A stretch of 63,941 bases of DNA, counting the filler, from Rhabdomonas costata (taxonomy: Eukaryota), in the NCBI GenBank assembly GCA_019059605.1. It is 51 parts of 51 records of this genome, joined end to end, with 100 filler letters (N's around TTAATTAATTAA, not from the genome) between each part and the next. Parts side by side here need not be neighbours in the genome. Positions count along the whole stretch, not along the records: positions 17,580 to 18,736 come from JAHMHO010025854.1; 50 more parts are not named here. One strand, 5' to 3'. The translations under genes were made by a program, and so were the position numbers. The notes under the pieces were generated by a model. The model was given only the letters and a program-made list of their open reading frames with translations, ran no database searches and was not told the origin of the DNA. Below, one piece after another: positions 10,041 through 19,282 of this stretch. Positions within the stretch are counted from its first letter, which is position 1; every line of letters begins with the position of its first letter.

Positions 10041-10960
10041 GGTTTGTTGGGAAGATGCAGATCTGCCAGGTCTTCCGGGTGGACCGCGACAAGGGGTACA
10101 TCGACCTCAGCAAGAAGAAGGTGGAGTAGCTGGGATGGGGGTGGATGTTTGCCTGTGCGTTCCGTGGTTGTGGTAGTCGTGGTATCAAACATCAACCAGT
10201 AAGTTGGGCATTGTTTGGCCTCTTACGGTTTGACCTGATGAGGATAGATGGAAAAGGGGTCACCTTTTTTTGTGTGGTTCTGGTTGGTAAACAAGGGACT
10301 GAAAGTGACTGTTCATGACGCACTTCAACTTGGTGTCATGTGCAGGTTTGTTTACTGAAGACGTCTCCTTAGCTCTCTTGCTTCTCACTTGCGCGCTCGA
10401 GAATAACCGCCACTCGAAAAGAAGATGTCGGAGGAAACACAAAATCATCGACCCAGAAGTCAGAGAAGGTGAGCCGGTTCCCCGACAATCATCGGTCGAA
10501 GGGGCACCCTGGCTATCGGTGCGCCATGTCAGCTGGAAAACTCCGGGTGTAGTCGTGAAGTGCAAGGCGAGGGCGGATTTGAGTACTGAGATCCGCTTCA
10601 ACCAGTGGGCTAACCGCCAAACCCGAAAACCACCCCAGGCCTGCTTCGCCTTTGCCCTGGGAACAAAATACAGTTGCTGCTTGCTGCGCACAGGTGACCA
10701 ATGAGGACCTGCGACCCTGTGAGACGCGGTACAACAAGGCCAAGGACGTCCACAGCATCATGCAGCACGTCGCACGGGAGTGCCGGGTCACCCTGGAGAG
10801 TCTGTACTACAACTCCGCGTGGCCGCTGTACAGGAAGTACGGACACGCGTACGACGCCTTTGGCATGGCCTACTCCGAGCCCGAGAAGATCCTGGGGCCG
10901 CTGAACCTTCCCGCGGACATCTACGAGAAGCTGGTCACCACTATTCGCCACAGGCACAAG
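10041..10960 (+). CDS. EIF2S1: Translation initiation factor eIF2-alpha, internal exons (10041-10120, 10694-10960)
   Basis: QVFRVDRDKGYIDLSKKK|VTNEDLRPCETRYNKAKDVHSIMQHVA...AWPLYRKYGHAYDAF; phase-0 GT-AG intron. Confidence 0.96.
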
Positions 10961-11380
10961 GTGCTCGCCACAGCGGCTGGTCAGCAGTAGCGGAAACCTT
11001 GGTCCACCCAACTCCATTTGGTTCCTTTTGACTCGGGATGTGGTGATGTCCATCTCAGTTGTGTGATCTTGGAAGTGACCTTTCTTCAACCATCATTAGC
11101 GCTTCGTAAGACAATGGCATGATCCGCTTGGTATCTGTTGTGCCTGTTTTCAGGGATATCCTTCCCTCTTCCCTCTCTCTGCCCCCCCCCACACCCNNNN
11201 NNNNNNNNNNNNNNNNNNNNNNNNNNNNNNNNNNNNNNNNTTAATTAATTAANNNNNNNNNNNNNNNNNNNNNNNNNNNNNNNNNNNNNNNNNNNNGTTT
11301 TGTTTTTCCCGGACGCCCCCGGCACAGGTGCGGGATTGGGCTGCCTCTCCTGTTGGGTTTGTGATGGAGCCGCGGGGCAG

Positions 11381-17579: not shown

Positions 17580-18088
17580 GGTGGTGGTGCTAAGAAGGCT
17601 TCCTGGAGAGCACTCTAAGCCGGTGTTCAGTCCTGAAGAAGAGGTGAAGTGAGACCCTCGTGTTTTTTAAGATGCATGTCACAGGCTGTTGGTAACGCCG
17701 TGCATGGATTTGTTCGCGTCCAAGAGGCACAACCAGTTGCCGAGGTATTTTGCGGCAGAGGAGGTGATGAGGCAGCGCTAGGCTGTAACGCATTCGCGTA
17801 TTAGTGGGGTCCAGATGTTTGCTTGTACGCAAATCCTCCGTGGAGTTTAATCAGTTGGTGCTGATGACGATTTGCAGAGATAAAGCGCGAGTGTTGTTAA
17901 TTAAGCCAAACTGGAAGGACGCACATTTGTTTCCTCTGCTGGAGGAAATTACAGTGCGGAAGTTGTTGAGAGGAGGTAAGCTTTATTTGCCAGAGAAGGG
18001 GGTGCTGAGACCCCCGCCAAGGTGGCCGACATTGTTTTTGTACGTGGTCGGTAAAGAAGTTGAGGGGTGGTGTAACAAGAGGATGTAA
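17580..18088 (+). mobile_element. Degenerate retroelement N6-adenine methyltransferase-like (DIRS MT-type) ORF
   Basis: Across frameshifts and stops: MDLFASKRHNQLPRYF...NAFAY*W..CLYANPPWSLI..VLMTICRDKARVLLIKPNW....FPLLEEI; NPPW at 17832-17843. Confidence 0.85.
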
Positions 18089-18128
18089 ATGGAGCTTGTG
18101 GAAGTTTGGATTGAGAAGTTACGGAGCC

Positions 18129-18578
18129 AGAGAGTGGGGATGTGCAGCAGAAGGATCTTCCAAAACCAGAGTTAAGTGGTAACCCGAGACCAAAACCACG
18201 AGGGAGCAAAAACCACAGCAAGAATTCCAACAGCCCCGACGACTCAATCCAACTCAACCCCTCAACCCAACCACACGCAACTAACCACCGAATGCTACCA
18301 TATTCCACAACCAATCGGGTGTCAGACGGCACGGCGGGCTCGGACCAATTACGTGGCTCTTGCGTCTTCCACGCGTATCCCTCTCGATCCTCTCACCTCC
18401 GTGGTCCCTCCAGACAAAGCTTCGCTTTGTGAGCGCTGTAAACTCACCTAGGTGAGGAGACTTTCTTTTTCCCGGGTTGGCCTCGCTTTCGCCGAGGGCA
18501 GGGTAGAGCCTGGACGCAACAACTCCTCGCAGCTGCCCAAGCCTGTGTACTCTTGGTCGATGAGTCTCGGTTGCAACA
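18129..18578 (+). mobile_element. Putative polypurine tract (18129-18140) and 3' LTR (18141-18578)
   Basis: AGAGAGTGGGGA is followed by TGTGCAGC...GTTGCAACA (TG...CA with imperfect inverted termini); no second copy in the window. Confidence 0.5.
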
Positions 18579-18616
18579 TGCTACTCCGTCACACCCTCTC
18601 GGTCGCTTCTAAAACT

Positions 18617-18726
18617 CCTTCGAAGGGGACTTAACCACCTTCGCTCCACAACCCGTCTTAATTCGCCAAACTCCCCGACCTCGCGCCTTGCCTCACCTCG
18701 AAGGGGACTTGACCGCCTTCGCTTCG
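18617..18726 (+). repeat. Two direct copies of a hairpin motif CGAAGGGGACTTRACCRCCTTCGCT
   Basis: Copies at about 18621-18645 and 18699-18723; CGAAGG/CCTTCG stems. Confidence 0.75.
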
Positions 18727-19282
18727 ACCCAAAACANNNNNNNNNNNNNNNNNNNNNNNNNNNNNNNNNNNNNNNNNNNNTTAATTAATTAANNNNNNNN
18801 NNNNNNNNNNNNNNNNNNNNNNNNNNNNNNNNNNNNTTTGTTGTGTTTTTATTTAATTGGCGTGATTGGGGGAGTGGGGGGGGGGGCTGAATTTCGTAAT
18901 TGGTTATGAATTGCCTGGAACATTCGCCGTCACTCAAATGGGCCACTGCGCTGCAAAGTGTTTACCTTCACCGAATTTGATATAATGGGACACCCAGTCG
19001 GCCAGCCCAAAGACGCATCCCTCCGCTCCCCACCCCTAATCCATTTGGCTCGCCTGTTTTTACCGTTTGTTTGTTATTTTGACTCAGTTTGGATGATTTG
19101 GAAGTGACAGCAACCCTCGATTGCTCTCCCTCCGTTTACTCAGGACCTTTTTTGCTTTCAGACATTTCGTGGGAGGCTTTCAGCCCCCCTTCCCTGCCCT
19201 CCCCACCCCATCCGCCTTCCAGTATTATAGCGTATCCTTCCTTGCTCACAAAGCATCGCACTGCAGGGAAGTGTCCAGAGCG

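Follow-up and report, generated by a model that had tools for sequence, protein, structure and literature searches.

A Rhabdomonas costata contig with two probable relics of a Ty3/gypsy retrotransposon family bearing a terminal Dam-like domain

Introduction

What kind of mobile element left an adenine-methyltransferase-like remnant next to a repeat-like TG...CA segment in an unplaced contig of the Rhabdomonas costata assembly GCA_019059605.1? Methyltransferase (MT) domains of this kind are found at the end of pol in DIRS1, which is described, in the part of the source available to us, as having contiguous reverse transcriptase (RT), RNase H (RH), and MT domains, a tyrosine recombinase, and inverted ends with internal complementary regions, and as lacking a target duplication (TSD) (PMC3266345). 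Related domains have also been described in LTR elements. Fernandez-Moreno et al. defined five lineages of DAM-LTR elements, which are Ty3/gypsy retrotransposons with a DIRS-derived, Dam-like domain containing an NPP triplet, and which occur at high copy number with many orphan remnants (bioRxiv 10.64898/2026.05.21.726589). The initial annotation of the present locus placed an LTR and its PPT directly behind the MT frame and proposed an integrase-type LTR family with a terminal Dam-like domain. Here, we address the identity of the element using the other copies of the family in the assembly.

Results

The locus and its methyltransferase remnant

The window, meaning the whole stretch of 63,941 nt that was analysed, is a concatenation of 51 unrelated contigs, each about 1.15 kb long, with N-TTAATTAATTAA-N linkers between them; elsewhere in it, an open frame at 10583-10990 (+) resembles what we take to be a piece of translation factor eIF2-alpha. 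The finding reported here fills one of the 51, an unplaced contig of 1.16 kb at 17580-18736, where a repeat search of the window returned only linker and simple repeats. Because contigs separated by N runs are not genomic neighbours, the structure of the element had to be obtained from other copies, and we searched the very fragmented assembly (97 Mb, 104,289 contigs) for these.

Alignment to open copies of the family identifies 17580-18075 (+) as the C-terminal end of pol, comprising the last part of a linker and a Dam-like N6-methyltransferase domain. The motifs first noted in a frameshifted ORF are all present, with DLFAS at 17707-17721 (+), NAF at 17787, and YANPPWSLI, including the NPP(W) catalytic-pocket motif, at 17826-17852 (+); they are spread over two frames, and the C-terminal part lies in a third. 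When the window copy is aligned with L002, an open copy, it shows 1-nt gaps near 17763, 17852, and 18064 and premature stops at 17650, 17668, and 17802. Judged by this alignment, it is dead and makes nothing. The MT frame of open copies ends in ...KEVEGVV-stop, which corresponds to the TAA at 18073-18075 in the window. A TAA does end at 18088, as the initial annotation recorded, but it was read as the end of the MT because the third 1-nt gap, near 18064, shifts the frame.

The following 85 nt (18076-18160, +) begin an internal stretch that, by comparison with other copies, extends 805 nt from the MT stop to the true PPT and the start of the 3′ LTR (measured in L006). These 85 nt hold a purine tract (18131-18140) and the ATG (18089) of a 97-codon frame that begins 14 nt past the MT stop (18089-18160 in the window; 431-721 in L007) and is open in L007. 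Searches with its 97-aa product gave no hit in the Atlas and none in the 22 homologues P0001-P0022. Further open stretches lie ahead of the PPT in L006.

The 438-bp segment behind the methyltransferase

The segment at 18141-18578 (+) had been proposed as an LTR on account of its TG...CA ends, its imperfect inverted termini, and the purine tract in front of it. The TG...CA segment and the tract are present where they were described, yet the first is not an LTR and the second is not a PPT. In a search of the assembly for copies, 40 contigs were scored among 310 candidates. Of these, 17 matched only the left part, with 11 stopping exactly at 18160 and none going beyond it, and 22 matched only the right part, with 21 beginning at 18316-18322 and all 22 extending past 18578; the one remaining was the contig at 17580-18736 itself. 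The segment is therefore not a repeat unit, since none of the other scored contigs spans it or ends at its limits. Moreover, the 10 fetched copies extending to 18160 all run on into internal sequence of the family, unlike the window. The supposed LTR is thus unlinked to the MT ORF elsewhere, an outcome that the initial annotation had itself named as counting against its proposal. In an ungapped alignment, the two ends of the segment agree at 4 of 12 positions. As for the purine tract AGAGTGGGGA (18131-18140), 9/10 positions are purines in the window, against 7/10 in nine of 10 family copies and 8/10 in the tenth, and the window contains, every 521 nt on average, one run with 9 of 10 purines and a TG behind it. 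The tract is therefore unconserved in the family, and such runs are common.

Matches to the family indicate instead that 18141-18578 is a patchwork composed of 20 nt of internal sequence, a 159-nt segment foreign to the family, and 259 nt of inverted true LTR. The foreign segment (18161-18319, no strand assigned) is A/C rich and is found only here and in L031. The inverted portion belongs to the 3′ 417 nt of the true LTR, which occupy 18320-18736 (-), opposite in orientation to the MT, and align at 87-89% identity with the 3′ portions of the L015 and L067 LTRs. The LTR end (...GTCTGACA, minus strand) sits at 18320, a boundary common to 21 of the 22 right-side matches.

In L031, the foreign segment is 92-94% identical and has both junctions. 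Window positions 18118-18366 correspond to L031:996-1239 as a 249-nt block of 94% identity with different flanks on either side, made up of 43 nt of internal sequence, the 159 foreign nt, and about 45 nt of inverted LTR end. Because L031 has both junctions at 94% identity, we regard it as a second copy. An ICR-like junction of the DIRS type was also considered for 18118-18366 and was set aside when the family proved to have direct LTRs and a TSD. The presence of this block in L031 could be cited, together with the TG...CA ends and the purine run, in favour of the local model, which takes 18131-18140 as the PPT and places the 3′ LTR at 18141-18578, immediately after the MT gene. However, L031 departs from the window at 18366, well short of 18578, the limits of the segment are neither spanned nor matched as ends in any copy, the 10 copies that pass 18160 carry family sequence, and the true LTR, PPT, PBS-like site, and TSD are located elsewhere, as described below. 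We give the local model almost no credence.

We also considered whether the three-part layout of the contig is an assembly or amplification chimera that corresponds to no genomic locus. The assembly is highly fragmented, and fold-back or circularly permuted joins, as in collapsed repeats or amplified DNA, are observed within the repeat copies L005, L011, L025, and L026. Three runs of one sample, probably the source of the assembly, contain assembled contigs that cover 17580-18736 in pieces. Among these, a separately assembled 224-nt contig (run X3) bridges the 18160/18161 junction with 0 mismatches and 116 and 108 nt on its two sides, whereas the run records listed reach across 18319/18320 by just 27 nt on one side. 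The second copy in L031 also speaks against a chimera, which we consider unlikely. The layout more likely arose by a genomic rearrangement in which foreign DNA received an LTR in reverse orientation and became joined to a truncated copy.

The LTRs, priming site, and leader

In other copies, the sequence 3′ of the MT is the reverse complement of the sequence beyond the right-hand repeat; therefore, the MT and the right-hand repeat belong to one family. In the sense of the MT, the true LTR extends from TGTCACGG to GTCTGACA, has TGTCAC...TGACA ends, and measures 1.1-1.3 kb (1139 nt in L015; 1303 nt, including an N gap, in L067). A purine tract with 11-12/14 purines ending in a G run stands right before the LTR start in 3/3 copies linked to internal sequence (L006, L015, L053), and the two LTR starts with unrelated flanks are preceded by only 6-7/14 purines and no PPT. 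Two further candidates for the LTR start downstream of the MT, TGTCAGAG and TGTCAGTG, were rejected because the sequence upstream of them is the same in all copies and contains no PPT.

At the 5′ end of the element, a PBS-like TGGTAGCAGAG, which we take to be the complement of initiator tRNA-Met, follows the LTR end after a 2-nt spacer at 19 loci, compared with 0 in the reversed control of the same assembly pattern search. Pattern searches of the assembly found no tRNA gene matching the site. The same LTR sequence is found in direct orientation at the two ends of the element, after the PPT in the three internal-linked copies and before the PBS and gag in the 19 loci, an arrangement that is reconstructed from overlapping copies, as none of the contigs holds both LTRs. 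A solo LTR in L067 (1615-2917), the only one with both ends (1/1), is flanked on both sides by the 5-bp sequence CTCAG, so that the TSD evidence comes from this single locus; the insertion lies about 0.8 kb behind a gene that presumably encodes a ubiquitin-ribosomal protein S27a-like product. Direct LTRs and a TSD, which the initial annotation had named as tests of an LTR element, are accordingly found in the family, in the form of a TG...CA LTR at both ends and the CTCAG duplication.

The 5′ leader behind the LTR end (L187, L188, L192, L195, L198, and others, all outside the window) is an array of 46-86-nt units. Each unit begins with a PBS-like (G/C)GTGGTAGCAG and ends in ...TGACA like the LTR. 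Two to seven junctions of LTR end plus PBS-like site are present in 15 of the 19 loci, with a few unit types arranged in mosaic order. We found no description of a tandem or multiple PBS leader in the literature searched.

Order of the element and the domains of pol

No contig of this assembly holds a whole element, and we tiled its order from copies covering LTR-PBS-leader-gag (L014, L193, L184), protease-RT (L130, L132, L153), RNase H-integrase-SH3-linker-MT (L172, L165, L174, L160, L109, L032, and the window), and MT-PPT-LTR (L006, L015, L067). Neighbouring tiles overlap in 12 of 14 pairs, with gaps at the gag-protease and RT-RNase H joins. The untiled blocks are tied in by rearranged, deletion-type copies, in which gag stands beside the MT (L012), the end of the protease is joined to the linker (L117, L126), or protease occurs with LTR (L139), and by P0004, on which the RT-RNase H join depends. 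This 1763-aa protein from another sample has the order protease-RT-RH-integrase-SH3 with the MT last, at residues 1606-1763, and the family RT is 53% identical to it. Pfam matches on the tiles comprise Ty3_capsid (weak, E 7e-4), Asp_protease_2, RVT_1, RT_RNaseH, rve, and SH3_Tf2-1, and the best relatives of the family RT among solved structures in the PDB are Ty3 RT (E 6e-41 and 4e-40). The SH3, linker, and MT share one frame across overlapping open stretches, which sum to an acidic linker of about 400 residues.

The same fusion of MT to an integrase-type pol is observed in P0001, P0002, and P0004, and 7 of the 22 longer homologues from outside the assembly carry SH3_Tf2-1 and/or rve. An unrooted MT tree, built without named references, places the copies of this genome, the SH3/rve proteins, and two unannotated proteins on one side of a branch with 100/99 support, and 13 proteins, mostly annotated as RT or Dam, on the other; we presume the latter to be of DIRS type, their recombinases being unseen. 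With rve and SH3 upstream, an MT that is last in pol, an RT nearest to that of Ty3, and MTs that group with integrase-bearing proteins, the proposal of an integrase-type LTR family with a terminal Dam-like domain is borne out, although the evidence first offered for it, the purine tract and 18141-18578, turned out to be neither PPT nor LTR.

We weighed these data against an ordinary DIRS1-type element, with RT-RNase H-MT, a tyrosine recombinase, and inverted ends. Such an element would account for an MT domain of the kind found in DIRS1 (PMC3266345) and for the 13 more distant homologues, which lack rve/SH3 and are 34-47% identical. In this family, however, integrase, SH3, and linker stand between RNase H and MT; no intact RNase H adjoins the MT, and RNase H is found near it only in internally deleted copies (L040, L071, L172, L176). 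The family also has an aspartic protease, direct LTRs, a PPT, a PBS-like site, and a TSD, and inverted ends of the DIRS type were not found. When the presumed DIRS-type pol P0013 was used as the query, RT matches were limited to 25-31% identity. No tyrosine recombinase was detected in 113 frames flanking the MT on 15 longer contigs, and a search for PF00589 across the assembly gave 2 matches among 7 candidates, a lower bound in view of the fragmentation, neither of which is on an MT contig. Those two contigs (L073, L074) are short and carry bacterial-looking integrases, possibly from contamination. Because the gypsy features were found positively, the recombinase negatives are not needed for the Ty3/gypsy reading. 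A DIRS1-type element is very improbable, and these sequence features mark the family as a genuine LTR element of the Ty3/gypsy type, with an rve integrase, not a recombinase, upstream of its MT.

In sister MT subfamilies (L059-L062, L065), which are 55-65% identical, a separate long ORF follows the MT and is itself followed by a purine run and a TGTAACGG start. This ORF had no convincing Pfam match, and its interpretation as gag was rejected because it precedes the PPT-like tract and LTR start.

Selection on the MT domain and its possible activity

An MT protein search of the assembly gave at least 151 matches (150 contigs scored among 514 candidates), which fall into several subfamilies down to about 40% identity. 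Similarity to Pfam Dam (PF05869) is below threshold in the open copy L002 (E 0.006, 16.7 bits; cutoff 28.1); PF05869 is carried by 6 of the 22 longer homologues, and Dam is assigned to 11% of the members of the Atlas look-alike cluster of the MT. Among 11 open copies, N66, P68, and W69 are invariant and P67 is nearly so. Between subfamilies, pN is 0.17-0.28 compared with a pS of 0.65-0.90, and in the 2 pairs (of 14 compared between subfamilies) whose dS was unsaturated, dN/dS is about 0.13-0.14. These values suggest that, in the active life of the elements, purifying selection acted on their MT domain.

Structure prediction was less informative. The AlphaFold model built from the 11 copies is poor (pLDDT 56.5), and Foldseek gave no match to it at an E of ≤0.001, the best, nonsignificant rows being RNA adenine methyltransferases; a VIA fold search reached a best Z of 4.9. 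The one hit in a PDB profile search, to a repeat protein, was spurious.

From the NPPW motif and the purifying selection, we infer that the MT probably had methylase activity. Alternatively, the domain could be a nucleic-acid-binding or structural tail of the integrase, or could act on RNA, rather than being an active DNA methylase. Consistent with this alternative, the best Foldseek rows, though nonsignificant, name RNA enzymes, eukaryotic DAMs are missing an N-terminal region that prokaryotic Dam has, and DAMs expressed in E. coli produced no gain in 6mA; conversely, DAM-LTR insertions carry more 6mA in three species (bioRxiv 10.64898/2026.05.21.726589, in the portion available to us). NPPW and DLFAS are, in addition, kept across subfamilies despite near-saturated silent sites. 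We consider this alternative possible but somewhat doubtful.

Discussion

Taken as a whole, the contig is very probably best explained as two relics of one Ty3/gypsy LTR-retrotransposon family with a terminal MT. By alignment, the first relic is the mutated MT-coding end of pol; the second, lying 159 nt beyond it, derives from the 3′ end of an oppositely oriented LTR.

Ty3/gypsy elements replicate by tRNA-primed reverse transcription and DDE integration, and this element would have copied itself in the same manner. As part of pol, the MT would be packaged in the particle and would there meet the replication intermediate. It would add N6-methyladenine to the RNA:DNA or cDNA intermediate of the element that encodes it, and 6mA would give new insertions a transcription-permissive mark. 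Self-marking by a packaged MT follows the model of the DAM-LTR preprint, which proposes 6mA on the element's own intermediates (bioRxiv 10.64898/2026.05.21.726589), and by analogy we put its chances in this family at roughly even.

The appeal of such an element is that a gypsy retrotransposon might itself lay down the DNA mark that activates it. The interest added by this locus is modest because the design is already in the preprint and the window copy is dead. What the locus does add is structural evidence, namely, the LTR limits, PPT, PBS-like site, and TSD of one integrase-type, MT-bearing family; the accessible part of the preprint's text contains nothing on the PBS or target sites (bioRxiv 10.64898/2026.05.21.726589). 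It further adds a sign that the MT was under purifying selection, along with a leader of repeated PBS-like units that may merit attention of its own. A bolder interpretation, that the family is a further independent DAM-LTR lineage with an MT active on its own cDNA and a leader that serves as a functional priming array, strikes us as decidedly unlikely; if it were true, reverse transcription could start, and integrase-ready ends could form, at several positions in the leader (up to seven units).

Among known systems, the family resembles yeast Ty3 (Metaviridae type) in its LTR-PBS-gag-PR-RT-RH-IN-PPT-LTR order (with a PBS-like site at the PBS position), its 5-bp TSD, and its RT, for which Ty3 is nearest. 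Unlike Ty3, it adds an MT, about 800 nt between the pol stop and the PPT, and a repeated PBS-like leader. With DIRS1, as described in the part of the source consulted, it shares a homologous MT at the end of pol, but in the data searched it has neither the recombinase nor the inverted ends (PMC3266345). Some retrotransposons have captured cytosine methyltransferases (5mC DNMTs) and therefore also carry a DNA methyltransferase as cargo, according to the part of that work available (PMC5890265), whereas the domain here is of the NPP type and adenine methyltransferase-like; the pieces of this family that were scanned contain no chromodomain or cytosine methyltransferase. The closest likeness is to DAM-LTR elements, under which name the combination of a gypsy element with an adenine methyltransferase is already published in a 2026 preprint, as far as its available text extends (bioRxiv 10.64898/2026.05.21.726589). 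Both are gypsy elements with a Dam-like domain containing an NPP triplet inside pol, and both are present in many copies and have left many remnants; set against the preprint's text, the present family is distinguished by ending its pol with the MT, which follows SH3 and a long acidic linker.
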